From positions 1-29,366 of the IMG/VR virus record IMGVR_UViG_3300005611_001882: a stretch of 29,366 nt of DNA. The stretch is one strand, 5' to 3'. Each line of letters opens with the position of its first letter. The stretch's first letter is position 1. Positions 11,809-29,366 of this stretch are shown here, one piece after another. The translations under genes and the position numbers were made by a program. The notes beneath the pieces were generated by a model. It saw only the letters and a program-made list of their open reading frames with translations, made no database searches and was not told where the DNA came from. Origin of the DNA: a virus (lineage: Duplodnaviria > Caudoviricetes).

Positions 11809-11835
11809 CCCAGGGTGGCCTAGCGCCGCCCTGGG
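11809..11835 (+). terminator. strong hairpin CCCAGGGTGGC-ctagc-GCCGCCCTGGG after the capsid genes (weak terminator or stability element)
   Basis: 11-bp stem with one G:U at the capsid-to-tail gene boundary. No clear poly-U. Confidence 0.45.
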
Positions 11836-11861
11836 TGTACCCCTACAAATTGGAGGGCGCG

Positions 11862-12617
11862 ATGATGCAGCTAAAAGTCGTGGATCTGATCCGTGACGTA
11901 AAGATGGCCACCAATCTCGAAGAGGCTAGCGCGTGGACCTCTCAAGTTGAGATTGTCGAGCAGGCCCTCCAAGTGTTCGACTCCATGCATTCGTGGGACT
12001 TTCTCACGGGTGCGGATGTGACGCTCGACACGGTGGCGCTTCAGCCTTGGGTCGTTCTGCCGGAAGACTTCCGCGACCTAGAAGATGTCGAGCTGTCCGG
12101 CGACTCCCCTCGGTGGGTTGAGGCCGTCACGCGAGCGCGGATGACGCAGCTCCGCTCTTACGACACGCCCCTGAACACGCAGTACGCAGGCTATTACTAC
12201 TGCATCACCCAGGAGATTCGAGCTGTGGGCGGTGGGCTGGAGTCTCGCTTAGAGCTGTTCCCTGCCCCTAGTGAGACAGCGGTGGGCGTGTTTCGCATCC
12301 GGTATCGGCGCTCTCTGGCTGTTCTTGCCTCCACTTCTCCAGACACAGCCTATGTCCGGGTGCCTCCCTTCTGCGTCCCGGCTCTACGCGAGCTGGTCAG
12401 GCTTGTAGCCAAAGGTATTGAGGAAGCCGATCCAGAGGACGGCGGTGCTCCCCTCTATCAGCGTTACGAAGGCTTTCGCCGTAGCGGACTGATTCTTGAT
12501 GCCATGTCGGCAGACGGGGCTTCTCAACCGATTCTCGGACCCCTTGAAGGAGGAGCTGCCGAGATCGCAACTCTCGACACGCATTGGTGGGATACCGCCA
12601 TTGACCAACCTTCCTGA
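11862..12617 (+). CDS. head-tail adaptor protein (putative)
   Basis: GGAGG at 11852. HSWDFL, LPEDF and LELFPAP...IRY are typical of podoviral adaptors. Position fits. Confidence 0.7.
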   Translation: MMQLKVVDLIRDVKMATNLEEASAWTSQVEIVEQALQVFDSMHSWDFLTGADVTLDTVALQPWVVLPEDFRDLEDVELSGDSPRWVEAVTRARMTQLRSYDTPLNTQYAGYYYCITQEIRAVGGGLESRLELFPAPSETAVGVFRIRYRRSLAVLASTSPDTAYVRVPPFCVPALRELVRLVAKGIEEADPEDGGAPLYQRYEGFRRSGLILDAMSADGASQPILGPLEGGAAEIATLDTHWWDTAIDQPS

Positions 12618-15600
12618 TGGCACGCTTCCCTCTTCCCTGGCCTTATCTTGGCGTCAGCGAGTTTCGGGCACACGCAGATCAGCCTGAGCTTTCTACTTCC
12701 AGCTCCTTCAACTGCCGAACCCTGATTGGCGACACGCTACGCCACCAGGGCGGGCAAAGGTCCGGCTGGTCAAACTTTACTTCTGCTCCGATGGAGCCCG
12801 GAAAGCATGTAGACGCTCTTGTCGCATGCACGGTGGACTTGCCGAAGGTCGAGTTCACGGGGCCGGATGCAAAAGGGCCGGAGTTCGTTTGGGGAGACAT
12901 CAGCCCCGGAAAGAGGGCTTGCCTCGACATACAGATTGGCCGCAATGGCGACATCTTTGTCCTAGATGAGAATGGGACGTTCCGCCGACTAGGGCCAGAC
13001 GGGAAGACTCAAACGAAGGTCAGCTTCTACGTTCCCTACCAAGAAGTGGTAGTCCCGCGCATCGAGCTGGACTCATCTGGAAACGTTTATGTGGCATCGT
13101 CGCACCCTGACGGGTACTCAAGCCGTGTCTATCGCTATGAGCGAATTGAGCCGGAAGATGATGCAGACCGCGTTTTCTACAACAAGAGCTGGAACTGGGC
13201 AGGAGCCTGGGGAATTCGCGACTTCCGGGTTTCCGGCGGCTCGCTTTACTTGTCGCGGTATTTCTCAGCATTCTCTCCAGAAATCACCCCTGCTGACCTT
13301 CAGGTTGTTGGACAACTATCCTTGACGACTCCAACACTCCTTTATGCGTCAGCAACCCCCGGGCCTGTATCAACCATTGCGGTAAACGATCAAGGGGAGG
13401 TGCTTGTCTCATGCAAAGCAAACGACAGACGCACACAGATTCTTGGGGATGAGGAATGGAATGTTCCTGTTGTTGCATGGTCCCCACACGAAATCGAAGA
13501 TGTAGCAGGATATCTTGCAGCAAGAAGGCTACACGCATGGGTAGATGCCCACACGCTATTAGATACGCATATTGACGGCTCCTTTGTGTCGTTTTGGAGA
13601 GATCGGCGTTGGGTCGATACGTCCCTGGACCTTTCTACAACAACTGCGATATCAGAAAGCGATGGAGTTGCTGTCCCATCGGGCGTTCTTAGTTACATCC
13701 CGCCAACGGACACACAGGCTAGACCCGTCGTAAGGCTTCAAATAGATCCTGATCCCGATTCCCCCCCGCCTGTATTTTTCAAGCCCCAAGGAGCTGGCAG
13801 TAGTCCGGCTGTAGAGTTTTCTGGTGGCAGCCTGCAACTCATGGGGAATGGTGGCGCGGGTGGACTCGTCAAAACGGATACAGACGGAGACGGCTTCCCT
13901 AATGACGACGGATTGCTGCCCCTAGACCGTCGATCTATCCCGTCAGGTCCGTCACAAACTTGGGCAAAGTTTTTTGTTGTTCGCATCAACCCAAGGTCCG
14001 ACAGGTCAGAAGGGCTTTGGCAATTCAACGGAAAGCTAGACGGGCAACTTTTGTTGGCTGTAAACGGATCTAAATCGCAAATATACGGCGGTGATTCATT
14101 GGGGGCTACGGAGGGAGCAATCACGTTTGCTGTAACGACCTGGGAGGGGAATCCGAAGTGCGAAAACGCAACCGGGACAGCAGGCGGGACATACAGAATT
14201 GCTTCGTGCGACCTACTCAATGACGGCACGGACTATGGAACAAACCCATACGACGTTCAAAAGGACTTCAAGAATCCGCAAAACATTGCAATCATCTGCA
14301 TTAGCAATGACGGGTCCGTATCTTATCCCGGCGTATTGTCTAGCCCTGCGACTTATGGGACCAGCCTATTTAGAGTCAATGGAAGGACGGTAGATAGGTT
14401 TTCTATGGTCCCAGACGTTTTGGGAGATGGAGGGCAGGAGTATCTTGGCTCATCTTCTGCCACTTGGACTCCATCTAGCACGCTAGACAACAAAGACCAA
14501 ATACCACTTGGCGCGTTCAGGGGTCAGGTGTTGGAGCAAATAACCATTTTGGGGTCTACTGCGGTCTCAACGAAGCCCAACCAAGTTGGTGTTTCGTGGC
14601 CTGGAAAGCCGTCCGGTGCTCTTGCTCCGGCAGCTCCCGGGGCAGCACACTCCTATACGGACATGTCTTTATCCTTCACAACGTACTTTGTTGATCCGCA
14701 GGCATACACGAATTTCGCCAGCGAGATTGAACGCATGGAAGGGTACTTGGCGCACAAGTGGGGCGTAGATCATGTTCTTCCAGGCGGCATGACTATGTCT
14801 ATATCAGGCGCCTTTCAAAATAGACACCCTTTTGGAAGGGATGCATCAAACTCCCCAGTTCCTCCTGTTGGATCACCTGTTGCTGGCGGATATGTACCTG
14901 GGCCTTCCGCCTCTGCGCTGTCGTCTCCAAAAGAGCTTTTGCTGAAGCTAGGAGCAAATGGAGAGGTTACTTGGGCAATCGACGGCGGTGGGCACGGCCT
15001 TGGCGTGGCTTCAGGAACCGACGGGGCAGTTTTCGCCATGGGCAGTCACGACAAAGTTGCCGGGTCTGTCGTGGTCGCAAAGCGCATCAAAGACTTAGGT
15101 AGTCAGGTCGTAACGTCTGGTGAGGGCACATGGGAGATTGAAGACGTTCGCGAACCTACTAGTAAGCCTGTCTATGGTGCCTCCGTAGATGATGCAAACA
15201 ACTTATATTGGCCGAGGCGAATTGCCCCATACGAAGTTCGTCAACAGTTTCCAACCAACGTGCTTGTTTCCCAGGTCTTTAGGACTGGGGCGTATAGCGT
15301 TGTGAAGCGTGAATATGTTTTTTCAACTGCGCCACTTACGCAGCCACTCGCTGGCTCTGGAATCGTAAGGGTTGCACTTGGACCTACAGCCTCGAAGTCC
15401 CTGCAAAATCTAGCGGCTGCGATCAATTTGAAGGAGAATGGCGGGAGTGACGAGGCTTATTATCGAGAGGCTCTTCTTGATGGCCCGGATAAATATGTTT
15501 CAGGCGCATATGAAACAGAATCGGGCTCTGATTACTTCCGTTGGAAGCACCGAGGATTCAATGGGCTCGCCAAGCTCGTATCAGGATCGACTACAGCTTA

Positions 15601-17260
15601 CCCATACACAGAGCTTCCACCCGACACGCTTATTCTGTTCCCGACTTGGAACATCGAGTTCGGAGGAGACTCGACCTCTCGGCTAGAAATGCGCTCAGCA
15701 GAGGATGGACGTTTGGTGTGGGAGCGGTTGGTAGATTCCGGCAACTCGGGCGGCGCAGAGAGTCTTGCGTGTGCTCTAGACCCCAACCTCCCTCTATATC
15801 CCAACGGTTCTCCGCTAGAGGGCATTCCTGAGTATGTCTACTCGGCCAGGAGGGAGAACGTAGACCAGTTGGGGGAGCTTATTGAAAACCCCGACAACTA
15901 CACCCTTGAGAAGGTCCGTCAGGTACACAGAAAGCAGATCATCGGGAAAGACCTGTCTCCGAGGAAGACGTTCCTCGTCGGTGCTTCTGGGGGGAAGCTG
16001 TTCTCTGTTCGGAAAGGCGCGAAACCCAGCGCGTACACATCCTCTATCGGTCTTTTGTCTGACGGCTCTCCCTTCACCGGGCTCCTGACCTATCGCCAGA
16101 AGGTCTATGGCTTTGACGGGATGAAGTACGTTGTCTTCGACCCCAAGACAGGCAAGGCAGAAGAGTGGAAGGCAGATGGAGCTGGCGAGATACCGTTTGG
16201 GGCCAAGCTGGGCTGTGTGTGGAATGGCCGCATCGTACTAGCCAGAACCCCAGACGATCCCCACAACCTCTACATGAGTGAGCGCGGGAACCCTCTTGGG
16301 TGGGATCGAAGCCCCCCTGTCCTGACTCCCCTATCCGCGTGGTCCGGCGACAGCTCAGGAACGCTTCACTTCAAGGCACATGGGCTGGTGAACTGCCTCA
16401 TTCCCCTTCGGGATGACCTACTGTTGGTGGGGCAAGACAGCGCCGTTCATAGGCTGACGGGAGACCCTGGAGGGCAGGGCCAGCTCGACCTTCTGATGGA
16501 AGGAGAAGGGTTGGCATTCGGTCGATGCTGGGCGCAAGGCCCCGGCGGCACGGCCTACGCAAAAGGGACCAACGGAGGAATCTGGCGGTTCCGGGGCGAT
16601 GGCTCCTTTGATCGAATTTCTCTAGGTTGGGTTGAGAAGCGTCTCCAAGAGATCAACTTGGCCTACTACGACGTAGAGATGGCATGGGACTTCCGCCAGG
16701 AGGGACTCGTTGTTGTTGTGGTCCCCAAGGATGTCGGGGGCCGGATTGTCGAGCACTTCTTCTGGGACGGCCTGAATGAGTCGTGGTGGCCGGATCGCTT
16801 CTCTGATGCGTCCCTCCAGCCGACTTGCATCAGCACGCTCGACGCCGACTCCGCTGACGATAGAGTCGTCATCATTGGCTGTGAAGATGGGTATGTGCGC
16901 TATTCCAACCCAGAGGATGCGAACGACGGAGGCCAAAGGATCGTCTCTGAGGTCGTACTCGGCCCCTACAACCTCAAAGGACAGGGGCGGGTCTCTCTCA
17001 GCAAGCTCGAAATGGTGCTCGCGTCACGGTACGAAGGGTGCCTTGTAGAGGTCTTTGCAACAGATGTCGCAGACTTTGGTGCAGCCGGATCGCCCGTGTA
17101 TTCGGGAGAAATCTCCTCTGGGTATGTCGGTTGGCTTGCAGCGCGAGCCACGGGCAATCACCTGTGGATCAAGCTCTCCAATGGAGCCCAGGATGAGCGT
17201 TGGGCTCTTGAAGAGGCAACCATGATTGGGCGGCGAGCTGGGCGCAGAAGGGTGCGCTAA
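12617..17260 (+). CDS. tail nozzle/stabilisation protein (P22 gp10/T7 gp12-like position) with beta-propeller segments and an inserted ConA/LamG-like lectin domain
   Basis: 1547 aa after the adaptor. C-terminal GCVWNGRIVLA..DDPHNLYMS..GNPLGW is nozzle-like. The insert carries LHAWVDA...DGSFVSFWRD and FRGQVLEQI...ERMEGYLAHKWG. Confidence 0.7.
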   Translation: MARFPLPWPYLGVSEFRAHADQPELSTSSSFNCRTLIGDTLRHQGGQRSGWSNFTSAPMEPGKHVDALVACTVDLPKVEFTGPDAKGPEFVWGDISPGKRACLDIQIGRNGDIFVLDENGTFRRLGPDGKTQTKVSFYVPYQEVVVPRIELDSSGNVYVASSHPDGYSSRVYRYERIEPEDDADRVFYNKSWNWAGAWGIRDFRVSGGSLYLSRYFSAFSPEITPADLQVVGQLSLTTPTLLYASATPGPVSTIAVNDQGEVLVSCKANDRRTQILGDEEWNVPVVAWSPHEIEDVAGYLAARRLHAWVDAHTLLDTHIDGSFVSFWRDRRWVDTSLDLSTTTAISESDGVAVPSGVLSYIPPTDTQARPVVRLQIDPDPDSPPPVFFKPQGAGSSPAVEFSGGSLQLMGNGGAGGLVKTDTDGDGFPNDDGLLPLDRRSIPSGPSQTWAKFFVVRINPRSDRSEGLWQFNGKLDGQLLLAVNGSKSQIYGGDSLGATEGAITFAVTTWEGNPKCENATGTAGGTYRIASCDLLNDGTDYGTNPYDVQKDFKNPQNIAIICISNDGSVSYPGVLSSPATYGTSLFRVNGRTVDRFSMVPDVLGDGGQEYLGSSSATWTPSSTLDNKDQIPLGAFRGQVLEQITILGSTAVSTKPNQVGVSWPGKPSGALAPAAPGAAHSYTDMSLSFTTYFVDPQAYTNFASEIERMEGYLAHKWGVDHVLPGGMTMSISGAFQNRHPFGRDASNSPVPPVGSPVAGGYVPGPSASALSSPKELLLKLGANGEVTWAIDGGGHGLGVASGTDGAVFAMGSHDKVAGSVVVAKRIKDLGSQVVTSGEGTWEIEDVREPTSKPVYGASVDDANNLYWPRRIAPYEVRQQFPTNVLVSQVFRTGAYSVVKREYVFSTAPLTQPLAGSGIVRVALGPTASKSLQNLAAAINLKENGGSDEAYYREALLDGPDKYVSGAYETESGSDYFRWKHRGFNGLAKLVSGSTTAYPYTELPPDTLILFPTWNIEFGGDSTSRLEMRSAEDGRLVWERLVDSGNSGGAESLACALDPNLPLYPNGSPLEGIPEYVYSARRENVDQLGELIENPDNYTLEKVRQVHRKQIIGKDLSPRKTFLVGASGGKLFSVRKGAKPSAYTSSIGLLSDGSPFTGLLTYRQKVYGFDGMKYVVFDPKTGKAEEWKADGAGEIPFGAKLGCVWNGRIVLARTPDDPHNLYMSERGNPLGWDRSPPVLTPLSAWSGDSSGTLHFKAHGLVNCLIPLRDDLLLVGQDSAVHRLTGDPGGQGQLDLLMEGEGLAFGRCWAQGPGGTAYAKGTNGGIWRFRGDGSFDRISLGWVEKRLQEINLAYYDVEMAWDFRQEGLVVVVVPKDVGGRIVEHFFWDGLNESWWPDRFSDASLQPTCISTLDADSADDRVVIIGCEDGYVRYSNPEDANDGGQRIVSEVVLGPYNLKGQGRVSLSKLEMVLASRYEGCLVEVFATDVADFGAAGSPVYSGEISSGYVGWLAARATGNHLWIKLSNGAQDERWALEEATMIGRRAGRRRVR

Positions 17261-17673: not shown

Positions 17674-18315
17674 ATGTGGGGAGCAGCACTAGCGATTGCA
17701 GGATCTTCCGTTCTCGGAGGCATCATGCAGGAAAAGGCCCAGAAGAAGGCTGATGCCGCTAACCAGGCGGCGATCAAGCAGGGAATGGGCTTCATCGACC
17801 AAGGCGTTTCCCAGGCCGAGGGCGCAAACGCCAAGGCGCTTCAAGCAGCCAAGCAGGGTTTCGCTGACGCCACCAAAAGCGTCGGAATCCTTGGTCAGGG
17901 TGCTCGGAGACGCCTATTGCGACGCGAGAAGCAACGACTAGGCGCTTCGGACGCCGAGGCAGCCAACCGTGGCCTGTACGCCTCCACAGGGGCTATGGGA
18001 GCCCGCAGGGCCATTCAGGCCGACACGGACCTGAGCCTTTCCGCTGTAGACGAGGCGCTCGCCCAAATTCACTCCGGCTTGTATAGGGACAGGGGGATGG
18101 CCCTGTCGTCGGTGCATCTAGCTCGACAAAACCTGTATGGAGCTGCGGCAGCAGCTAAAGCCAACCTCGCGACAAGCATCATTCACCAAGCCGCCCCAAT
18201 TGGAGCAGCTCTTGGTCAAGCTGGTGGCAGCCTTGCCCAACTTCTGATGATGTACGGAAGCAGCAATGGTGGTGGGTCGAGCAAGTTCTCCGGTGCCTCC
18301 GAAGGGGTCTTCTAA
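17674..18315 (+). CDS. DNA ejection/internal virion protein (P22 gp7-like position)
   Basis: GAGGTG RBS. N-terminal WGAALAIAGSSVLGG, Ala/Gly/Gln-rich. Confidence 0.65.
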   Translation: MWGAALAIAGSSVLGGIMQEKAQKKADAANQAAIKQGMGFIDQGVSQAEGANAKALQAAKQGFADATKSVGILGQGARRRLLRREKQRLGASDAEAANRGLYASTGAMGARRAIQADTDLSLSAVDEALAQIHSGLYRDRGMALSSVHLARQNLYGAAAAAKANLATSIIHQAAPIGAALGQAGGSLAQLLMMYGSSNGGGSSKFSGASEGVF

Positions 18316-19940
18316 TGGCTGGAATTGTCGAGCATGGGAGCGGCATTGCTGGCGGACTTCAAGCTGCTGCCGGGATGCTTCAAGGGGCTGCAAGTGGAAT
18401 GAAGATGGGCGCGGATCTGGAGGCCAGCCGCCTTCAGTCTGAGCGGCAACGCATGCAGCTTGGGATGCTCAAGCAAGCGGTTGATCTAGAAGAGAGTCAG
18501 CGGCAGGCGCAGACCGAGTGGGACATGCTTGTCGCTCGCTCTCTTGGCCAAGACCCCGCCGAGCAACAGCCAGGGGTTTACGGACCCCCCCCTCCCATTC
18601 AGGAGTTCGACACGGGTGAGACAGACATCCCCGGTGTACGTCGAGCGTCAATGGGATTCAGTCGAGAGCAGCTAGGGATTCTTTCTCGACTTAGTAATGA
18701 AGAGCGCGATGCGGCCATCGAGGACAAGCGGAATGAGATTTTCGCTGCTGACCTTGAAGCCAACATGGCAAACCTTCGTGGTCGAATAGAGATGATGCGT
18801 AGCCAGCAAGGGCCTTACGCTTCTCTCGAAGGAATGGGGGCGGACCCTAGAACTGAGTCCGTTCTCCAACAGGCCGACATGGCTATCCAGCTCTACGAGC
18901 GAGGAGAGATCAACGGCCTACAGGCGCACCAAGCGGTCTCTCAGGCTTCTAACGCTGTGCTTGAGATGATCTGGCAACAGCAAGACGCGCAGGAGACCGG
19001 ATCTGCTCTATACGCAAAGCTGCAAGAAGTGCGTAGAGGAAATGGGGACGTTCTCGGTGGGGATGATTCTGCGGTCGAGTTCCAAGAGTGGATCATCAAG
19101 AGCTGGGTTAGCGGAGACCTAGATGGCAAGACCGCCAGAGCCCTTTCGGGGCTTGGCCCGCAAGGTTCCGATGCCGCGCTATCGTGGGCAATGAGGCAGG
19201 CGCAGGGCATACAGCAGGCCCAACCCACCACCTATGAGAGCCAAGGAAGACTTACGGTGAACCGTGGTGGTCAACCTTCTAGTGCGCCGCGTGGCCTTGA
19301 TCAAATGGAAGCAGGGCCCATGCCTGGACAGGCGCAGACTTCACAAGATTCTGCTCGCAAAGCGCCTACTCAGAAACGCAAGCAAGGGACATCAGACAAT
19401 GTTGTAGGGAGTAATCCGTCTCCGATTTTCAAAGAGGAACGCACGCAGAGAGAAGAGGCTCGGTTTGTAGACAAGCTATTGGGACTTGCAAACCACCTCA
19501 AAAACAATGAGATCGAAAAATACAACATCATTGCGGACAGTTTGACGGGAAACGCTGAAGAGCAGCAGGCGCTAGCAAATGCTGTTGCTCGTGTAGCCTC
19601 TGGAAAAGACGCCCAAGCAGAAGCGAAAGCTTTGCCAAAGAACTATCTCCGCCAAGTGACTATGGGGTATCACGGCTCACAGCTAGCAGAAGAAGACCCC
19701 GGGATGATCCGTGATCTATCCGGCAACTTGGTTCCTAAGAAAAAAGCAGGTGATCTAGTTTCGCCGGATGGGCCGATGCCCCTTCCTAAGAGCATTTGGT
19801 CGGAACCTAAAGGGGAAAGGGCGGACATCAAACCGCCCAGCGAGCAAGAGAAGAAGAAAAAGAAGAAGAAGAAGAAGAATCCAAATGATCGCTTCGTGAG
19901 AGGCAAGAGGCGCAGCACGGAACAAGAGTCGGATAACTAG
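18315..19940 (+). CDS. DNA ejection/internal virion protein (541 aa) with a Lys9 tract near the C-terminus
   Basis: Gly/Ala-rich N-terminus and Gln-rich helices. Lies between the small ejection gene and the giant gene. Confidence 0.6.
   Translation: MAGIVEHGSGIAGGLQAAAGMLQGAASGMKMGADLEASRLQSERQRMQLGMLKQAVDLEESQRQAQTEWDMLVARSLGQDPAEQQPGVYGPPPPIQEFDTGETDIPGVRRASMGFSREQLGILSRLSNEERDAAIEDKRNEIFAADLEANMANLRGRIEMMRSQQGPYASLEGMGADPRTESVLQQADMAIQLYERGEINGLQAHQAVSQASNAVLEMIWQQQDAQETGSALYAKLQEVRRGNGDVLGGDDSAVEFQEWIIKSWVSGDLDGKTARALSGLGPQGSDAALSWAMRQAQGIQQAQPTTYESQGRLTVNRGGQPSSAPRGLDQMEAGPMPGQAQTSQDSARKAPTQKRKQGTSDNVVGSNPSPIFKEERTQREEARFVDKLLGLANHLKNNEIEKYNIIADSLTGNAEEQQALANAVARVASGKDAQAEAKALPKNYLRQVTMGYHGSQLAEEDPGMIRDLSGNLVPKKKAGDLVSPDGPMPLPKSIWSEPKGERADIKPPSEQEKKKKKKKKKNPNDRFVRGKRRSTEQESDN
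19851..19877 (+). repeat. (AAG)n trinucleotide run encoding Lys9
   Basis: AAG AAG AAA followed by six AAG, read directly. Confidence 0.85.
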
Positions 19941-19945
19941 CAAAC

Positions 19946-22900
19946 ATGCAACAACAGTCTGCATTCGAGCTGGCAAAGCAAGCCTTTCAGCAATCATCAG
20001 GGTCTTCATTGGAGACGACTCCTGAGCCTTCGCTTCCGATGGAAGGCGGGCTCTTGCAGCCCGAAGGAGAAGAGACTTCTGCGTTTGACCTAGCAAAGCG
20101 TTCGCTTCGGGAGACTCCAGAAGGATTTGGAGAAGGCTTTACTTCGGTTTTCTCTGAGGCGTGGGAAAGTGGCTCATGGAAAGAGGCTATTCCGTTCTTT
20201 GGCTCTGCGTACACGGCGGACAAGTACGCAACTTTGTGGTCGGCTGCGGATCGGCTAGAGCGCGGAACGCAGACGCGAGAGGACGAAGACCTACTCCTAG
20301 CCTTTCTGTCTGAATCCCAGAAACCTAGCGGAATTGGCCGCATGGTCGGGGACATCCTCCTGAACCTGCCCGGGTTTGCCATCGAGTTTTGGCTTTCAGG
20401 CGGGCTTTTGAAGCTGGGGACCAAAGGGGCCGCAAGCCTTGCTGGTAAGGGGCTGAGAGAGGCCATTGAGAAAACTGCCCAGAGAGGCACCTTGAAGGCG
20501 TTCTCTGGGCAACTGGCGAAGCGGTCTGCTTCCGGCGCGATCAAAGAGGGCGCGATTGGCGTAACCCGTAGTGTCGCTGGTAGTGCGGCGCAGCTTGGGG
20601 TAATGGCTGGCCTTCAAGAGGCCGCTGGTGGCTCGCGCATTCGAGGCAACGCTTGGCGTCGAGCTATGCCGCAGATGTCGCTTTCCGAAGAGGACGCAGG
20701 CAGGCTAGCTATCACGTTCCACAGCACCACCGGGGAGTTCATGGATGCGCTCCCTCAAGCGGTTCTGGACGAGCTGATCGAGGTCTACTCTGAGCGTAGC
20801 GGAGAGGCTCTCCTTGCTGGTGCCAGCAAGATCCCCGGATGGGCGAAGGTCCAGGCGATGATGGGGGCCGTTGCGGAGAATTGGACCAAAAAACACCCAG
20901 GAGGCATTCGGTCCCTTCTGTCTACTGTCTCAAGCAAAACAGGGTGGCACGGTCCCATCGGGGAGTTCCTTGAAGAGCGTTTTGGCGGCGCTCTTCGTGG
21001 AGCGACGGGGGTAGAGGAGGGAGGGGTCATCGAGAACACTTTCCCGGGCCTCGACCAGATGGCCGCAGAACTCATCGCGTTCTCTGTTCCTACTGCTGCC
21101 GGAACTGGTGTGCAGTTGGCTACAGATGTGCCTGCGGCTGACTACGAAAATCGTTTTGCAGACCGTGCAGGCGAAGCCAAGACCCTTAGTGGTCCGCTCA
21201 AGAAAGAAGAGATCGAGGCTGGCGTAGCGGATTTGTCCAGTCGCGAGGGCGTTGCCTTCAACGTAGTGGAAGCGCCCGACAAAGAGGCTGCGAAAGAAGC
21301 AGAGGCCGTCGCAAAGGCTCGTGGCGCGGATATCGTTTGGGTGTCTAGCGAAGACGGGTCTCCGCTTCCGTTCAATGCGGCGCTATTGCGCGAAGGCGTT
21401 ATCGCAATGGACGCCAACGCTGCGGAATCTCCGGCGCAAGTCGTACTTGAGGAGCTGTTCCACGACCTTCGAGAAAAAGACCAAGCACTACACGACGAGC
21501 TAGCTCAAGCTGTTCGAGACATAGACAAGGACAGCTTTGAGGAGTATCTCGAAGAGTATAAGGCGCTTTACAAAGAGGTTTTTGGCCGAGAGCTTGCCGA
21601 AGAAGCTGAGCTGACTGAAGGGCTGGGCGGGTATGCCCAGATGCACGCTGGGCTTCTATATCTCGCCAGCACAAAAAATGGTCGCGAGGCTTTGGCTAAG
21701 CTCGTTCAGAACAAGCGCAGCTTTGTGCAGCGTCTTGTTGACTGGATGAAAGAGGTGTCCGGGACGCTCGGATTGGGCCTCAGAACGACTCAACAGAAGC
21801 GTCTGGAGGCCCTTGATCGGCTACTTGGCGTAGAGGGAATGACTACTGTGCAAAGCGCAGAAGCCGCCCTTTTGTTGGGTGATGCCTTTCAAACGACAGT
21901 TGGTGTTGCTCCCCCGACCATGCGGTTGGGTCCAGGCGCTCCTAGGTCAACAACTCAGTTGGAAGAGCCCCAGGGCAGCCCGGAGACTACTGAGCAACAA
22001 GAAGGGGAAGAAAGCGAGGAAGCCGATGGCCAGACGGACCCGGTGCCCGGGACGGATGAGCAACCGCAAGAGGCCCCCCCTGAGCAGGAGGCTGATGCCC
22101 CTGCAAGTGCGCCACTTTCAGAGCGACAGCCTAAGCGCGCCAAAAAGCTAGCGGCGCAGGCACGCGAGCGCGTTCGAAAAGAATGGGCTCAATATGAGAA
22201 TGTGGGTGTAGATGCCCCAGCTCTTACGTTCCTTATCCGCGACTACCTTGGAGAGTATGCGGGAGACCCTCCCTTTGATGACCCCGAAGAGCTGGAGCGC
22301 AACGCTGTAGAAGAGGCTGAGCTACTCGGAATCGCGGGAACGAACTTCCCCGAGATTCTAGCCGAGCTGGCTGGTCCTGTAAGTGCAGGGGGCTCTAGCC
22401 TTGAAGAGGTTGCGCTTGAACGTGCCGATAAAGCTGTTCGTGAGTCTGGAGAGCTTTATGCGGTAGAGCTGGACAAAGACGAGCACGGAGAGCTGATCAA
22501 CAAGTGGCACGACAAGCACCACAAGACTCGCGAAAAGCTGAACCCTAGATATCAACACGCTCTGGCTGTAATGGCTGGGGATGAGTTGCTTGCCGTTGCC
22601 ACCTTGGGCACCCCTACAGGGCGTTGGGCTAAAGAAAAGCAAGGCAAGATTGTCGAGCTTCAAAGAGTCATCAGCTCTGGCTCCCGCAAGAACGCCTCTA
22701 GCCTTGCCGCAGCTCAGTCGATTGAGTGGGCCAAGAGAAACGGCCTAACTCTTGTGACGTACTCTGAGATCCAAGAGGCAGGAAGCACTTACAAGGCCCT
22801 ACAAGAGCCTCGCAAGGACGGCTATCACTTGCGCCCGACTTCCTTGCGTCCAGCAAGACAGTCTAGAGCCGGGAAGCCGGAGCCCGAAAAGGTTCGGTGG

Positions 22901-25900
22901 GAAGCAGGCCCCTTAGCTGGCGAAGCTATCGAGCTGCCCGGTCAGCCTCAAAAGAAGTCGAGATCGCGCGAGGAGCAAGAAGCCGAAGAGATTGAGATTG
23001 TTAGCCGCGCCCGCGAAGAAATCGGCAAGGGGGGAACTCCTCAGCAAATCTTCCGGCGTTTGGTCGCTCTCTACAAGAATCAGCGTAGGCCCAAGATCCG
23101 AACGTCTGAGACGGTGCTGCGCCAACAATACAGCACTCCGATTCCTCTTGCCTACCTTGCGTCGCAACTCGCTGGAGTTGAGGCAGAGGATGTTGTGTAC
23201 GAGCCTACGGCAGGCCACGGGATGCTTCTGGTGGGCGTTCCTGGTAGCGCCCTTGAGTCCGCCCAGCTCAACGAGATCGACGCAGATCGTGCAGCTCGCC
23301 TTGAGGCATATCTGGAAGAGCGATTTGGACCTACTGAGGGAGGTCGTCCCAGGGTTAGCGTCCAAGACGCAACGGAGCACACGCCCAACGTCACGCCTAC
23401 GGTTGTTTTGGCCAACCCGCCCTTTGGCAAAGTGGCGGGAGAGTCTCGTGGAAAGCCGAAGTCGTGGAGCGTCCGTATTGGCTCTAAGACTCTCAAGACG
23501 ACCACAATCGACCACGCGATTGTGGCGAAGTCTCTTGAGACTCTGAAAGACGGCGGTAGAGCCGTCTTCATCATTGGCAGCCAAAAGAGCTTGGCTTCCG
23601 GCAAAGAGCGGAGGCAGCAGGAGAGAGAGAAGGCATACCGCGTCGGAGCGACCGGAAGGTTCTTCAACGCTCTATACGACAATTGGAACGTAGTTCAGCA
23701 CGTTACGATTGACGGCGAGCTGTACAAGCAACAGGGGGCCGCATGGCCCGTGGACATCATCGTCATCGAAGGTCGCGGCGCATCAAAGCTAGAGCGCCCT
23801 AGGGAGGAAGCCCCGGAGGTTCTGTATGACTGGAAAGAAATCGAAAAGCTACTGGTGCCCGGAAGGGGCGAATCCGCTTCTAGCCAACGTGCAGGCGAAA
23901 GAGGGGGAACTGCTGTCGATGCGGGAGTACCAGAGTCGGCTCCTACTACGGGTGCTGGAGTTAGTGAAGAAGGAGAAGCTGGAGGTGGCACAGGAGCAAG
24001 TCAGGCCCCTGGAGGCGATGGGGGTTCTGGGCGTACCGGAATGGGATCTGGACAGCCTGAGAGCGGCGGATCTGGCTCACGCGCTCGTTTACAACAACCT
24101 GACGGGACAGGAGTGCCTGACGGACGATCAGGAGTTTCCGGCGAAAGTTCACAAGCTGCGGAAGATGCGGCCAATCCCCCTGGAGGGTTGGTTGGCGCAA
24201 CTAATGACGACCTTGCAAGGCTACTAGACGAGACGATTGAAGAGGCGTATGGCGAAGACGCTGCGCCCTCCGCTGTTGAGCCGGGTGAATCCGAAGAGGC
24301 TATTGAGCAAGCCAAGGAGCAGCTTAGCCCGGAGAAAATGGCGCAAGAGCCCGAGTCTCCTGAAAAGGAAGAGGGCTCCGGGCGCGACGAGGATCTAGAC
24401 AGCATTGCCGACCTTTTCTCTCTCCCCCGGCGCAACGTCGATCCGGGAGAGATGTGGAGGGCGGACATTCTTGAAGGGGCGCAGTCATACACATCGGAAC
24501 GCACCTCTAGAAAACAAGTTCCTGCCGGGAGACGGATGATCGACTGGCAGCCAGGGACGATCAACGCCGACATTGGTGGGGGAAAGTACGACGACTTCAC
24601 GGATTGGCTGCGTGAGCGCGGCGTGATCAACAAGGTCTACGATCCTTACAACCGCAGCCACGTTCATAACCGCGTCATCATTCGCGGTATCGCCAACGGG
24701 AAGGCCGACACAGCAACGGTCTTCAACGTACTGAACGTCATTCGTGAAGCCGATGTTCGTCAGCTCGTCATTGCCCAGGCAGCAGATGCCATCAAACCGG
24801 ATGGTGTGGCCGTATTCCAAGTCTATGACGGCGGCTCCGCGAAATCAGGCAAAGGTGCCCAAGCCACAAAAGATGGCTGGCAAGAGTTCCGCAAGGCGCA
24901 CACATACCGGGACGAAGTGGCGAGCTGGTTCGGCGAAGTCGAGATCAAGGGTTCGAGCCTGATCGCCAAAGAGCCCCGCAAGCTCCAGTCCGGGCGCGCG
25001 GTCTTCTCGCTGCCGAGGCGCGATGAGAGATACAGAAAGATCGCCAAGACCTTTGTTTCCTCGCTCGAAAAGCGTGGCGTAGATCCCAACGACGCAAAGG
25101 GCATCGTCACAACGCTTGTTGGTTACTTCCGCGATGAGCTGAAGTTCACAAAAGAGCGCATGGAGAAGGTGAAGGGGACGGTCATGCTCTTCATGCGTGA
25201 CGTTCAGAATGGCGTCTACGTTTGGGGCTCAGCGAAACAGCGGGATAGAGTTGAGACAAACCCGAATAACCAAGCTCTAGAGACAGACCTACAGGTTCCC
25301 TACGAAGGGATGTCTCAAGGCAACAGCATGGATACGCTGATGCCCAAGAACTTGATGACCTCGATGTTGCGTGCGCTCCGCTCCTTGAGAGAAGAGCATG
25401 GAGACATTGACGAGTGGGTCGCAGAAGAAATGGGGTGGACCACCGAGGAGTTGCACCAATACTTGGGCCAAGAGCAAATCGACGCGCTTGCAATGGCCCT
25501 AAACAGCTTCTCCAAGAACTCTGGATTCATCCTGGGGGATCAAACCGGGGTCGGAAAAGGCCGCGTTGTTGCAGCTCTTATCCGCTGGACTATCCGCCAG
25601 GGCCACACGCCTGTTTTCCTTACGCAATCGCCCGGGCTCTATGCCGCGATGTTCCGCGATCTGCACGACATTGGAGAAGAGTCCGTCAATCCATTCATCA
25701 CGAACACCACCCTTCAAGGCGGACCGATCAAACTTCCAGCACGACCGTCGCAGAAAGACAAAGGCGAAAAAGATGGAGACCGGGTTCTTCGTCCCGTGTC
25801 TGCGAAAAAGCTAAAGGAAATTGCTGACCATGCCCGCGATAACGGGCAATTGCCCGGGCCATTCAACGCTGTTTTCAGCACCTACGCTCAGTCGCAATTT

Positions 25901-28900
25901 GTCGGTGGAAAGGCGCGGGACAGGCACACCATCTTGGAGAATATCGCTCCAACCACGGTATGGATTCTGGACGAGTCTCACGAGGCTGGCGGGCAACAAC
26001 TCACGCCTGCTGACGAGAAAAAGATCGAAGAGGGAGAGAAGATGCCCCGCGCCGTCTGGATTCGGCGCGTCACGGCTAAGGCTATTGGCGTTGGGTACTC
26101 TTCTGCCACGTTTGCCAAGAACCCTTGGGTGCTTTCTCTATACCACAAGACCGACTTGTCCCTTGCCATACCTCAAGACGATGAAATGATGAAGATCACA
26201 TCGGGAGCCATTGCGACAGGTGGCGTTCCGATGCAGCAGTTCATTTCGACTCTCTTCTCAAAGGCCGGGCAAATGGTGCGCCGAGAAAGGAGTTTCGAGG
26301 GCGTTGAGTTTTCCGAGCAGATTGTCGAGGTAGACAAGCAGACCGTTGAGTATGTGTCGGAAACGCTGCGAGATATTTTTAGTCTCGATATGCGCGAGAT
26401 GAGCGGCGCAAGGTCAGCGTTTGTCGAGCTGCTTCAACGCGAGGGTCTTGAAGTAGCAGGCGATACGGCTGTTGGAGATGCTGGCGCTTCTGATACGGTT
26501 GGGTTCACAAGCGTTATGCATAACCTTGTAGCCTCGGCTTACCTTTCGCTCAAAGCGCCGGAGGTTGCTGATGCCGCAATTGCCGAGTGGAAGGCAGGAA
26601 GAAAGCCTACCATCTTCGTCAACTCGACTTTGGGCGCGGCTCTCAGAACCCTGATGGATGCGAACGACTTGAGCGTCGGAGACACCATCGAAGATCCGAG
26701 CTTCAAGAACGTGATGAAGTCGGCGCTCCATAGGCTCCGAACGCTCCCTATCAAAGATGGAGATGGGAAGAAGGTAGACGAGCGGTACATCCGCGACCAA
26801 GACTTTGCCCTGATCGGCATGCATCATGCTCTGGAAGCGTGGAACAAGTCCATGCAGCTCGTTGAGGGGATGGACTTTGCAGAAATGACGCTTTCCCCCA
26901 TCGACGTAATGCGCGAGCGCATGGAGGAAGCCGGGATGTCGGTTGGAGAGCTTTCGGGAAGAGATGTCCGGGTACGCACTACAGGCGACGGCCAATATAG
27001 AATCGAGCGTCAAAAGACAGGCAACGCCGCAAAGCAGGAGAGAATCGCTCGCTTCAACGACGGATCATTGGACGCTCTGATCTTCAACGTGGCTGCGGCA
27101 ACGGGATACTCTTTCCATGCTGGAGCCAAGTTCCTCGACCAGCGCCGTCGCGTGATGTTCATTGCCCAAGCGGCCCAAGACATCAACGTCTTCATGCAGG
27201 CCCTGGGTCGCATCCACAGAACCGGGCAAGTCACGGAGAGGCAAGAAAAGGAAACGCCTTGGTCTGTGGTCGGAACGCAATTCGAGTCGGAAGACTACGG
27301 GCTCCCTATCTTCCGGCTCATGTATGCAGACACCCCCGGGGAAATGCGTCCAAGGGCGATGGTGTCGGCCAAGTTGCAGGCGTTGAATGCCAACGTAACC
27401 GCATCTGCAAAAGGAGCTGCGAACATCGAAGGCGCACCCTCCTACATGAACAAGTATGGAGATGCGGCTGCCATGCAAGTCCTTCAAGAGATGGACCTTG
27501 TAGACACGGTTTCGATGGGGTTCTTCCAAGACAGCGAAGGCAAAATTGTGAATTCGCTTGGTATGCCTGTTCCTGCAACAGACCTTGCTAGAAAGCTGAC
27601 TGGCAAGTCATACGTTCTGCCCCTTCAAAAGCAGCAGGAGCTTTATGATCGCCTCATTTCTCTTTACGAAGAGAAGATTGAGCAATTGAACGCGATTGGT
27701 GCCAACGACCTAGAGGCTCCCCTGCTTGAGTTGGATGCCAAGCGCCTTCAGGTTCTTCTGGCGCAAGAAGCTGACGGCCCTTCTCCTTTCCAGGGCGCGG
27801 TGTTCGAAGAGCGCCTAGATGTCCTCAAGCTCAACCCCCCGGAGTCTTACGAAGACATCATGGAGAAGGTGGAGAAGAGCGACAGCGTAGAATTGCTTCG
27901 TGAAGCCGAGGAAGAGCTTCCGCGCCGCTTGGAGGAAATGGAAGACTCTGCGGGGTCGGCTTCTGAGCTGTTGGCTACTCTGGAAAAGAAGATCGAGTCT
28001 CTTGTTCAGAAGATCGAGACGATGGACCTTCAGCGGTCAATCGACGGCAAGAAGAAAAAGAACAAGAAGTCTGAAGAGCAAAAAGAGCTGGAGTCTGAGT
28101 TGCGAGGGCTGCGATCAAGGCTCAACGAACTGAACGTATTGGAGAACGCAGCAAAGAGAGATAGCGTGCGGCTCAGCGAGGCAGCGGTCTTCTTGCGTGA
28201 ACTCTCTAGGAAGGTAGTCGCAGGACGCCCGGTTCAGTTGTCCATCAAGGTAGATTCAGATTCAGAGACATCTGATGTCGGTATCACCGACGATGGCGGC
28301 AAGAACACCCTATATGGCGTGATCACAAAGGTTGGAAGACATGGCCGCACGGTGAGCGCGCTATCTCCTTCTGACTACTACTTCGAGGTATACACGAACA
28401 AGAGTTCGGCACCTTTGAAGGTCAGCTTTGCAGCTATCAAGCACAAGACTGTGGAGCTGAACACCTCGACAGGCCCCGTCGTAAAAGGGCGGATCGACCT
28501 TGAACGCTCTTCCGGCAGAGAGGAGGTGTCTGTTCTGACTGGCAACCTTCTGAGAGCTTGGGCTCAATTTGAAAAGTCCGGCACTCTCGCCATGTTCAAA
28601 GACTCCGAGGGCCGTGTGCGATCTGGGGTTATGTTGCGTGGAGGGAAGAGCGTTGTGGACCTTCTTTCTGAGGCACCCCTCCGGGTGTCTCTGGAGCAGG
28701 CAGAAAAGCTAATGGACGCAGCGGGTGGCGTCGTTGTCTTTGGAGAAGGCACAAAAAATCGCCCTGCTGGCATGGCAATTAGGCTTCAAAACGGAAACGT
28801 CTCCATCAAATTGTCGAACGCCAAAGGGGTTCGATGGATGCTGGACCGCCTTGAAGCATCTGGCCATTCGTTTGTTCAGAGATCCGAACCTGGCAGCCCT

Positions 28901-29366
28901 CTAGGGTCTACGGTTTGGGTGTCTAGGCAAGCAGGCGGGTTCGAGCTTAGTGACGCAATAAAGATTCTGTCTGTCCTTACAGACGGCGGACGAAACATTT
29001 CGGTTCCCGATCAGCTCAAAGCTCATAGCCGCAAGGTGTTGGGAGTTGAGATCAAAGCTGGCGAACCCAAGGCGCTCGATGATCCCGCGACGTACTCGCT
29101 CCCGCGCCGAATCACGACCGTCACCGAATCCGCCGCGTTCAAGAGTTGGTTCCGCGACTCGAAGGTGGTGGACGCGGACGGGAAGCCGCTCGCGGTGTAT
29201 CACGGGACAGATCGTGCGTTCACCGTCTTTGATCGGCTCGCCGCCTCGCGCATTTATGGCGGCAAGCCTGACATGAACGCCGTTGGGTCTTGGTTCTCTT
29301 CCAGCCCTGATGCGGCCAGGCAGTACGCACGCCGCGCATCCGTGATGCCAGTCTTCCTAAGCATCA
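19946..29366 (+). CDS. giant (>3140 aa, 3'-truncated) DarB-like polyvalent ejection protein: degenerate zincin, Mom/XF1762-like GNAT, N6-adenine MTase, second SAM-MTase, Strawberry-notch SF2 helicase, ART-PolyVal
   Basis: ATG 19946 (MQQQSAFELAK). In-frame motifs: EELFH 21449, HDKHH/LVTYS/KVRWE 22454-22909, YEPTAGHG 23198, NPPF 23414, DIGGGKYD 24569, NVLNVI 24725, GDQTGVGKGR 25535, DESH 25970, QALGRIHRTGQ 27197, YHGT 29198. Its absence from the ORF track is consistent with having no in-window stop. Confidence 0.9.
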   Translation, partial: MQQQSAFELAKQAFQQSSGSSLETTPEPSLPMEGGLLQPEGEETSAFDLAKRSLRETPEGFGEGFTSVFSEAWESGSWKEAIPFFGSAYTADKYATLWSAADRLERGTQTREDEDLLLAFLSESQKPSGIGRMVGDILLNLPGFAIEFWLSGGLLKLGTKGAASLAGKGLREAIEKTAQRGTLKAFSGQLAKRSASGAIKEGAIGVTRSVAGSAAQLGVMAGLQEAAGGSRIRGNAWRRAMPQMSLSEEDAGRLAITFHSTTGEFMDALPQAVLDELIEVYSERSGEALLAGASKIPGWAKVQAMMGAVAENWTKKHPGGIRSLLSTVSSKTGWHGPIGEFLEERFGGALRGATGVEEGGVIENTFPGLDQMAAELIAFSVPTAAGTGVQLATDVPAADYENRFADRAGEAKTLSGPLKKEEIEAGVADLSSREGVAFNVVEAPDKEAAKEAEAVAKARGADIVWVSSEDGSPLPFNAALLREGVIAMDANAAESPAQVVLEELFHDLREKDQALHDELAQAVRDIDKDSFEEYLEEYKALYKEVFGRELAEEAELTEGLGGYAQMHAGLLYLASTKNGREALAKLVQNKRSFVQRLVDWMKEVSGTLGLGLRTTQQKRLEALDRLLGVEGMTTVQSAEAALLLGDAFQTTVGVAPPTMRLGPGAPRSTTQLEEPQGSPETTEQQEGEESEEADGQTDPVPGTDEQPQEAPPEQEADAPASAPLSERQPKRAKKLAAQARERVRKEWAQYENVGVDAPALTFLIRDYLGEYAGDPPFDDPEELERNAVEEAELLGIAGTNFPEILAELAGPVSAGGSSLEEVALERADKAVRESGELYAVELDKDEHGELINKWHDKHHKTREKLNPRYQHALAVMAGDELLAVATLGTPTGRWAKEKQGKIVELQRVISSGSRKNASSLAAAQSIEWAKRNGLTLVTYSEIQEAGSTYKALQEPRKDGYHLRPTSLRPARQSRAGKPEPEKVRWEAGPLAGEAIELPGQPQKKSRSREEQEAEEIEIVSRAREEIGKGGTPQQIFRRLVALYKNQRRPKIRTSETVLRQQYSTPIPLAYLASQLAGVEAEDVVYEPTAGHGMLLVGVPGSALESAQLNEIDADRAARLEAYLEERFGPTEGGRPRVSVQDATEHTPNVTPTVVLANPPFGKVAGESRGKPKSWSVRIGSKTLKTTTIDHAIVAKSLETLKDGGRAVFIIGSQKSLASGKERRQQEREKAYRVGATGRFFNALYDNWNVVQHVTIDGELYKQQGAAWPVDIIVIEGRGASKLERPREEAPEVLYDWKEIEKLLVPGRGESASSQRAGERGGTAVDAGVPESAPTTGAGVSEEGEAGGGTGASQAPGGDGGSGRTGMGSGQPESGGSGSRARLQQPDGTGVPDGRSGVSGESSQAAEDAANPPGGLVGATNDDLARLLDETIEEAYGEDAAPSAVEPGESEEAIEQAKEQLSPEKMAQEPESPEKEEGSGRDEDLDSIADLFSLPRRNVDPGEMWRADILEGAQSYTSERTSRKQVPAGRRMIDWQPGTINADIGGGKYDDFTDWLRERGVINKVYDPYNRSHVHNRVIIRGIANGKADTATVFNVLNVIREADVRQLVIAQAADAIKPDGVAVFQVYDGGSAKSGKGAQATKDGWQEFRKAHTYRDEVASWFGEVEIKGSSLIAKEPRKLQSGRAVFSLPRRDERYRKIAKTFVSSLEKRGVDPNDAKGIVTTLVGYFRDELKFTKERMEKVKGTVMLFMRDVQNGVYVWGSAKQRDRVETNPNNQALETDLQVPYEGMSQGNSMDTLMPKNLMTSMLRALRSLREEHGDIDEWVAEEMGWTTEELHQYLGQEQIDALAMALNSFSKNSGFILGDQTGVGKGRVVAALIRWTIRQGHTPVFLTQSPGLYAAMFRDLHDIGEESVNPFITNTTLQGGPIKLPARPSQKDKGEKDGDRVLRPVSAKKLKEIADHARDNGQLPGPFNAVFSTYAQSQFVGGKARDRHTILENIAPTTVWILDESHEAGGQQLTPADEKKIEEGEKMPRAVWIRRVTAKAIGVGYSSATFAKNPWVLSLYHKTDLSLAIPQDDEMMKITSGAIATGGVPMQQFISTLFSKAGQMVRRERSFEGVEFSEQIVEVDKQTVEYVSETLRDIFSLDMREMSGARSAFVELLQREGLEVAGDTAVGDAGASDTVGFTSVMHNLVASAYLSLKAPEVADAAIAEWKAGRKPTIFVNSTLGAALRTLMDANDLSVGDTIEDPSFKNVMKSALHRLRTLPIKDGDGKKVDERYIRDQDFALIGMHHALEAWNKSMQLVEGMDFAEMTLSPIDVMRERMEEAGMSVGELSGRDVRVRTTGDGQYRIERQKTGNAAKQERIARFNDGSLDALIFNVAAATGYSFHAGAKFLDQRRRVMFIAQAAQDINVFMQALGRIHRTGQVTERQEKETPWSVVGTQFESEDYGLPIFRLMYADTPGEMRPRAMVSAKLQALNANVTASAKGAANIEGAPSYMNKYGDAAAMQVLQEMDLVDTVSMGFFQDSEGKIVNSLGMPVPATDLARKLTGKSYVLPLQKQQELYDRLISLYEEKIEQLNAIGANDLEAPLLELDAKRLQVLLAQEADGPSPFQGAVFEERLDVLKLNPPESYEDIMEKVEKSDSVELLREAEEELPRRLEEMEDSAGSASELLATLEKKIESLVQKIETMDLQRSIDGKKKKNKKSEEQKELESELRGLRSRLNELNVLENAAKRDSVRLSEAAVFLRELSRKVVAGRPVQLSIKVDSDSETSDVGITDDGGKNTLYGVITKVGRHGRTVSALSPSDYYFEVYTNKSSAPLKVSFAAIKHKTVELNTSTGPVVKGRIDLERSSGREEVSVLTGNLLRAWAQFEKSGTLAMFKDSEGRVRSGVMLRGGKSVVDLLSEAPLRVSLEQAEKLMDAAGGVVVFGEGTKNRPAGMAIRLQNGNVSIKLSNAKGVRWMLDRLEASGHSFVQRSEPGSPLGSTVWVSRQAGGFELSDAIKILSVLTDGGRNISVPDQLKAHSRKVLGVEIKAGEPKALDDPATYSLPRRITTVTESAAFKSWFRDSKVVDADGKPLAVYHGTDRAFTVFDRLAASRIYGGKPDMNAVGSWFSSSPDAARQYARRASVMPVFLSI

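Follow-up and report, generated by a model that had tools for sequence, protein, structure and literature searches.

Does a tailed phage carry, inside a protein that enters the cell with its genome, an enzyme of the kind that hypermodifies DNA bases? The question is raised by a linear virus record of 29,366 nt (Duplodnaviria; Caudoviricetes; IMG/VR record IMGVR_UViG_3300005611_001882; estimated completeness 71%), which was analysed over its whole length and is referred to below as the window. Its last gene encodes a giant protein, and a preliminary description of the sequence had assigned bases 22454..22909 of this gene, on the plus strand, to a Mom/XF1762-like GNAT domain that could hypermodify DNA on entry. 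We find that the domain is an XF1762-type relative of Mom, not a Mu-type Mom, and that together with a five-helix partner it forms a mobile cassette in giant polyvalent proteins. The reading that we favour, at somewhat less than an even chance, is a virion-delivered base acyl- or aminoacyltransferase that protects entering double-stranded DNA (dsDNA) from host restriction enzymes.

The plus-strand frame of 22454–22909 is stop-free and encodes 152 residues, aa 837–988 of the open reading frame starting at 19946; the opposite strand of the same stretch contains stops. All of the motifs quoted in the preliminary description were found in this frame (WHDKHH, LLAVATLGTPTGR, IVELQRVISSGSRKNASSL, LVTYSEIQEAGSTYKA and EKVRWE). 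Contigs of four public runs from one study, labelled as a mollusc metagenome, match the region at ≥95%. A contig of run X1 spans 22773–23950, from the end of the domain into the adenine methyltransferase (MTase) that follows it, with no insertion or deletion (indel), and a contig of run X4 spans 22092–22659; no indel or joint was found in the region across the contigs. Since these contigs cover the region, including the border between domain and MTase, the fusion is real and not an assembly join. The window holds 3140 aa of the giant, and its full length of 4171 aa is given by the database protein P0003 (from a 22,884-base ENA contig), which is letter-identical to the window protein across these 3140 residues.

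The best family matches of the domain were PHROG 1384 (Mom-like; E 3.4e-10, profile positions 31–140 of 245, PHROGs having no curated cut-off) and the NCBIfam model XF1762 (NF045478; 42.8 bits, below the cut-off of 50; E 4.5e-11, model positions 13–143 of 143), which bears out the family named in the preliminary description. Close relatives of the domain score 30–39 bits against XF1762, and the sequence points to a related subfamily of the XF1762 family rather than to a full member. XF1762 was matched by 72 of the 73 members of the alignment, a RimI model by none. When the relatives' profile was run against Mu Mom, it scored 13.6 bits, with 7.0 bits for the best shuffled Mom (642 reported of 1000 shuffles); no PDB sequence was matched by the family profile. 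The AlphaFold2 model of the domain has a GNAT fold (pLDDT 94.2), and the structure search of aa 837–988 that had been proposed earlier gave the same fold: Foldseek returned 111 matches at E≤0.001, those listed having the GNAT fold, and VIA aligned 139 of the 152 residues to Mom 8bv8 (Z 13.4; rmsd 2.5, the lowest among the top 20 rows), the model spanning Mom 40–220. The predicted GNAT fold was thus recovered, but Mom was not singled out by structure, as RimI ranked first in Foldseek and Mom 21st. The structure is close to RimI in Foldseek, but no RimI model was matched in NCBIfam or Pfam. The placement beside Mom rests on sequence, not on fold.

Mu Mom transfers glycine from Gly-tRNA(Gly) to the N6 of adenine in dsDNA, and H58, Y59, R111, S124, D149, R151, Y159 and a helix-turn-helix (HTH)-like insert are reported as its important elements, with R111, S124 and R151 essential; mutation of Y59 drastically lowers activity, and deletion of the insert abolishes it (PMC13219725). 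The arginine (R101 in PMC7261163, equal to R111) is conserved in Mom homologs and not across GNATs (PMC7261163). In the window domain H58, R111, S124, D149 and Y159 correspond to H859 (22520), R907 (22664), S919 (22700), E941 (22766) and Y949 (22790). Over 151 aligned rows (the query and 150 relatives, with P0151 and P0003 left out), histidine occupies the H58 position in 147, arginine the R111 position in 150, serine the S124 position in 147 and tyrosine the Y159 position in 146. At the D149 position all 7 rows of the close subclade plus P0007 have E, and an acid occurs nowhere else, with L in 129 of the 151 rows overall. By these residues the domain looks catalytic. However, because it lacks Y59, R151 and the HTH-like insert that Mom requires, it is not a Mu-type Mom, and neither an adenine target nor the 6-NcmdA product can be assumed; the Mu-type chemistry on adenine put forward in the preliminary description is therefore not supported as stated.

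Homologues were collected by a profile-free search of 1.84 billion representatives, which gave 157 proteins at E≤0.001, 150 of them among the matches listed; P0004 and P0007 were added from a separate search. P0151 was dropped as spurious (an autotransporter repeat) before the counts and the tree, and P0003 was left out of both as identical to the query. In a quick tree the query groups with P0004, P0005, P0006, P0008 and P0009 (SH-aLRT 96), with P0007 adjacent. LPD38 and/or ART-PolyVal, an ADP-ribosyltransferase (ART) domain, is found in each of the four full-length close relatives P0004–P0007 (2614–4210 aa); ART-PolyVal is present in P0003, P0004, P0006 and P0010. The domain starts near aa 436, 1349, 1557 and 1174 in the four full-length relatives. 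It is 62–64% identical among P0003–P0006 and 44% identical in P0007. For the scaffolds in common with P0005 and P0007, the identity is just 23–33%.

The conserved unit begins ahead of the domain as first delimited, near aa 727 (base 22124). A region of ~110 aa in front of the domain is common to P0004–P0008 by BLAST; in the window it covers aa ~727–836 (22124..22453, plus strand; BLAST, profile and model) and is modelled as five helices (H9–30, H37–46, H59–72, H80–88 and H98–113), the first of them basic (net +6 over aa 726–750). The profile of this partner domain matches P0004–P0008 and P0156 only, and no Pfam family matched it. The GNAT domain and its five-helix partner are a mobile cassette in giant polyvalent proteins. 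When the model of the entire cassette was searched against a viral structure library, matches to its GNAT part took up the list. The best of them was BFVD A0A6J5LU57, an 877-aa 'ART-PolyVal-like domain-containing protein' from an uncultured phage (19% identity); the named neighbours of lower rank include a Mom and several proteins fused to endonucleases. The best match may reflect an independent recruitment into polyvalent proteins, possibly of a different Mom-like lineage.

In the window giant, the domain is followed after ~15 residues by an N6-adenine MTase of the DarB/gamma type (22952..23815, plus strand; Pfam N6_Mtase, E 9.4e-06 for the isolated stretch; PHROG 9133), with the motifs STP at 23132, EPTAGHG at 23201 and NPPF at 23414; the TP plus NPP(Y/F) signature of this MTase type is given in PMC5512222. 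The direct fusion upstream of an adenine MTase that had been noted is therefore present here, but it is not a conserved partnership. A conserved unit of Mom-like domain and MTase was rejected for the close subclade, none of the four full-length relatives carrying the N6 MTase, and we also counted against the partnership that both domains would act on the same adenine N6. After the domain P0005 carries ddrB-ParB next, and P0007 has DUF6884 downstream. The metagenome locus L002 has a layout like that of the window, three genes and then a giant with the domain near aa 870–1020. A word-index protein search with the bare domain passed none of 42 candidates (83–266 aa), and a five-row profile search for longer relatives (810–2310 aa) found one among 7999 scored, a weak result; no close-subclade loci were found in the viral-contig or genome-contig collections searched. 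In tblastn against GenBank phages, weak Mom-like and acetyltransferase matches were obtained (E 4e-3 to 0.7), and none for the wider clade, so no cultured phage in the GenBank phage collection carries the domain.

Beyond the close subclade, the wider clade comprises at least 150 clusters in which the domain occurs in other proteins, often of the head module. A Pfam scan covered 113 relatives, all of ≥348 aa, the 38 shortest of 151 being left out. It revealed polyvalent-type domains (LPD38, ART-PolyVal, ddrB-ParB, InPase) in 16, a C5 DNA methylase in 7, DUF6884 in 7, PAPS reductase in 2, an N6 MTase with SNF2 in one (P0056) and no match in 73. Head or packaging genes stand beside the Mom-like gene in 4 of 12 loci with scanned neighbours: a portal gene lies directly upstream in L008; in L011 a portal gene lies upstream and protease, scaffold and capsid genes downstream; L009 has a capsid gene; and L016 has terminase and minor head protein genes. 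In L024 the Mom-like gene adjoins an invertase instead, and L019 encodes a 1126-aa protein that matches PHROG 1384. Of 19 distinct loci, 7 have a DarB-like MTase or helicase in the flanking sequence retrieved, one of these being weak. The homology of the partner domain with the upstream region of the wider clade was not significant (hhalign probability 2%), and the two were therefore treated as separate. In P0056 (L025, 9629–13102), which belongs to a different branch of the tree, the order is Mom-like domain, DarB-type N6 MTase and SNF2 helicase; from the quick tree, this fusion is likely independent of that in the window.

Stand-alone XF1762 genes were found in 32 phage and 63 plasmid records. 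Among the four whose contexts were inspected, that of phage phi1026b overlaps a DNA MTase gene, those of HTVC034P and ZF40 lie directly upstream of terminase genes, and one lies among small genes. A PHROG 1384 gene that adjoins a DarB-like gene is reported for one prophage (PMC11318856).

Whether the domain would reach the cell with the genome depends on the protein that carries it. The giant (19946..29366, plus strand, open at the window end) is the third and last of three tightly packed genes. The first (17674..18315, plus strand) encodes a T7 gp14-like ejection protein of 213 aa (ESM Atlas feature score 0.96); it shares 204–206 of 256 ESM Atlas features with clusters that carry T7_gp14 (19–24% of members), and its nearest clusters are also labelled 'putative internal virion protein'. 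The second (18315..19940, plus strand) encodes a 541-aa protein that, by position only, would be the gp15-like member of the ejection cluster, with no family match in the profile-library scans; its start overlaps the upstream stop (TAATG), and it ends 5 bases before the giant gene. Its C-terminal basic tail (window 19800–19940) contains a run of nine lysines. Within the giant, the N-terminal region common to other LPD38 giants (20090..21157, plus strand; 26–28% identity to P0005 and P0007) is likely a virion or ejection scaffold. The cassette and the N6 MTase are followed on the plus strand by a second S-adenosylmethionine-dependent MTase-like domain (24431..25006; DIGGG, NVLNVI; Pfam Methyltransf_23, E 7.9e-06), a Strawberry-notch-type superfamily 2 helicase/ATPase (25463..27235; GDQTGVGKG, DESH; Pfam AAA_34 and Helicase_C_4 above cut-off) and the start of the ART-PolyVal domain (29171..29365; YHGT; Pfam PF18760); beyond the window, P0003 carries LPD38 (aa 3871–4066; Pfam).

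With several disparate enzymatic domains and an LPD domain in a virion gene module, the giant fits the polyvalent proteins as defined in PMC5512222, and it appears to occupy the position of T7 gp16/P22 gp16-type ejection proteins. An LPD38 giant has been found in purified virions of JC1 (PMC9144972), and another in purified phi24B virions, for which ejection was proposed (bioRxiv 10.64898/2026.04.10.717836). Judging from gene order and from this proteomics of other LPD38 giants, the giant is very probably ejected together with the genome; the embedding of the domain in a virion-delivered protein, as the preliminary description had it, is likely in view of the gp14-like gene upstream and the LPD38 giants of JC1 and phi24B.

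We hypothesize that the giant is packaged and ejected into the cell along with the genome, and that the GNAT domain and its five-helix partner would then transfer an acyl or aminoacyl group to a base of the entering dsDNA, by which host restriction would be blocked. The donor would most likely be host charged tRNA, as for Mu Mom, and with such a donor the enzyme would work before any phage gene is expressed. Purified dsDNA and host Gly-tRNA(Gly) suffice for Mu Mom in vitro (PMC13219725); as these needs do not include replication, action at the time of entry would be chemically feasible. DNA binding might come from the partner helices and the basic loop at aa 966–982, in place of the HTH-like insert of Mom, and the giant's own helicase may move the enzymes along the DNA. 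The two MTases would act in parallel to the Mom-like domain, at other sites and not in a chain with it, as a second layer of protection. Both the modified base and the adduct probably differ from the 6-NcmdA of Mu. In a more specific version, an XF1762-type relative of Mom, bound to DNA through its helical partner, would use amino acids of host charged tRNA to modify bases at entry in a new way that differs from Mu, and the cassette would have been swapped repeatedly into unrelated ejection and head-cargo proteins (about 150 clusters); as a whole, this version is possible though somewhat unlikely.

For modification of entering DNA we counted the near-invariant Mom-type R, H, S and Y with the acid at D149 in the close subclade, the DNA-modifying company in the wider clade with the XF1762/MTase gene overlap of phi1026b, and the identity of the domain among P0003–P0006 compared with that of the scaffolds; for the delivery we counted the gp14-like gene, the layout of L002 and the LPD38 giants in virions. 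A number of points weigh on the other side. The essential R151 is not kept (Q943, with no arginine in aa 941–945 under either placement of a 2-residue gap), nor are Y59 (K860) and the Mom dimer residue W48; the HTH-like insert of Mom (~175–209) is absent, with a 17-residue basic loop (aa 966–982) separating the last two modelled strands; and P0007 has K instead of R907 and Q instead of E944. The XF1762 score is below its cut-off, Pfam Mom (PF25680) had no match at E≤0.1 in the domain or the whole protein and matched 9 of the 113 scanned relatives (above cut-off in 2), and the literature search on the XF1762 family found no paper and no functional study. RimI precedes Mom in Foldseek, and the VIA Z score of Mom is tied with those of ordinary acetyltransferases. 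The N6 MTase is absent from the four closest full-length relatives, the co-occurrence counts of the wider clade were made without a background control, and in polyvalent proteins domains that act on DNA are freely combined with others that act on proteins, as the ART shows here. Moreover, a few virion copies would have to mark a genome of tens of kb ahead of restriction, at a speed that is an assumption. The main rival, which we consider possible though somewhat unlikely, draws on several of these points. In this reading the domain would be injected to acylate something other than DNA, be it a host protein (RNA polymerase or a defence protein, for instance), a charged tRNA or a small signalling molecule, and would help to take over the host, as would the ART that the giant also carries. 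Among the elements of Mom, those associated with DNA binding (the HTH-like insert and R151) are missing, RimI-type protein acetyltransferases come first in Foldseek, ART-PolyVal recurs in the four proteins named above, and GNATs of polyvalent proteins are predicted protein modifiers, often beside ART (PMC5512222); the substrate of Mom itself is described as not predictable from structure (PMC13219725). On the other hand, the sequence signature is that of Mom/XF1762 and not of RimI, the Mom-specific arginine is almost invariant, and DNA-modifying domains are frequent among the neighbours.

Modification of DNA late in infection, in which newly synthesized copies of the protein would modify progeny DNA ahead of packaging or in the course of it and the fusion would only tether the enzyme to the head, seems unlikely to us. 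It has a precedent in Mu, which confines mom to late infection (PMC7261163), and it accords with the place of the giant gene in the late module, with the stand-alone XF1762 genes just upstream of terminase in HTVC034P and ZF40, and with the wider-clade genes between portal and head genes (L008, L011). Yet a stand-alone gene would suffice for this role, without repeated insertion into ejected proteins, and the same chain holds a DarB-like MTase-helicase and an ART, modules thought to act at entry (PMC5512222). Alternatively, domain shuffling could have spread a passenger that has no catalytic activity or is in decay, be it a binding module, a decoy or a relic. The missing Mom residues and the substitutions of P0007 at R907 and E944 would agree with such a passenger. 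It is improbable, as the cleft residues are near-invariant over the 151 rows, conservation of the domain far exceeds that of the surrounding scaffolds, and the frame is intact in four further runs.

In comparison with Mu Mom (PF25680; 8bv8; PMC13219725, PMC7261163), the window domain has the same GNAT fold, H58, R111, S124 and Y159, D149 as E, and the non-canonical CoA loop; it differs in a structural identity of ~14% and in lacking R151, Y59, W48 and the HTH-like insert, and whereas Mu Mom is a stand-alone late gene product, the domain is embedded in a 4171-aa virion-type protein. It shares the motif series and the best family matches with the XF1762 family, which has stand-alone members in phages and plasmids, but forms a branch of its own with the extra motifs NxRY, KDGY, LRP and WEAG and the helical partner. 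The carrier protein is comparable to polyvalent proteins and the P1 DarB-type MTase-helicase (Iyer et al. 2017, PMC5512222), the DarB-like gp69 of Bcep22/JC1 and gp47 of phi24B, in being a giant virion-module protein with an N6-MTase, a SWI2/SNF2-type (Strawberry notch) ATPase, ART-PolyVal and LPD38. However, the polyvalent proteins of PMC5512222 include two RimI-like GNAT families that are predicted protein modifiers, and its main text does not use 'Mom' or 'XF1762'. Jumbo-phage Mom-REase fusions likewise join a Mom-family domain to other domains, but these are restriction-endonuclease folds in predicted modification-restriction pairs, and virion delivery is not among the features described in that account (PMC7824862).

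A relative of Mom of the XF1762 type that forms a mobile module in proteins likely delivered by the virion is a real and, it appears, unreported variant, with its family and context well supported. The literature searched, which did not extend to the supplementary lists of PMC5512222 or to Iyer et al. 2013 (NAR, DNA base-modification systems; this paper may discuss the present Mom branch), yielded no description of a Mom-like domain within an ejection or polyvalent protein. To our knowledge, the known phage base hypermodifications are all made during replication or late in infection. The virion-delivered protection described for polyvalent proteins is methylation of the DarB type (PMC5512222); a Mom-like enzyme in an ejected protein would unite hypermodification with such delivery. 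If the favoured reading is correct, hypermodification would be installed at entry, and since only host charged tRNA or acyl-CoA would be needed, the enzyme could act at once; this would also be the first chemistry for the XF1762 family. The domain is small (152–280 aa), well folded in the model and should be easily expressed, with R907A as a clear dead-mutant control. It thus opens the XF1762/PHROG 1384 family to direct assays, from which a new DNA adduct and a labelling tool may come.

Several further features of the giant and its relatives were recorded. The second MTase-like domain (motif series DIGGG...YDPY...NVLNVI) has a 42% identical stretch in P0006 and a weak PHROG 14016 match, and is flanked by two SLPRR motifs. 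The 4171-aa protein has four copies of this pentapeptide (window 24419, 25007 and 29096, and aa 3231 of P0003), each following F, Y or H and each at a domain border: before the second MTase, before the helicase region, before the ART and after the ART. No 5-mer reached four copies in 200 shuffles of the protein. The copies use differing codons, indicating that they are kept at the protein level, and SLPRR is not present in P0004–P0007 or P0010; it is possibly a processing or linker signal. Among the relatives P0004–P0154, Q-x-x-L-F motifs occur in 37 of 150 (2.1 expected from shuffles) and VxxHxR repeats in 28 of 150 (12.8 expected); the former resemble a sliding-clamp-binding motif, and no clamp-like motif is found in the window giant. 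A row of large genes with both motifs lies in L013 (1614–20716), and L003 (803–5776) is among the relatives' loci to which this observation applies.

Elsewhere in the window, family matches identify podovirus-type morphogenesis genes on the plus strand, namely terminase large subunit (5029–6522), major capsid protein (9813–11045) and an SU10-type adaptor (11835–12617). The adaptor gene is followed, in the tail-nozzle position, by a gene for a 1547-aa protein (12617–17260) with no family match, which presumably far exceeds nozzle proteins in length. Upstream of the terminase lies a gene for a 623-aa sulfatase (2043–3914; Pfam Sulfatase, E 2.3e-27), which is unusual for a phage.

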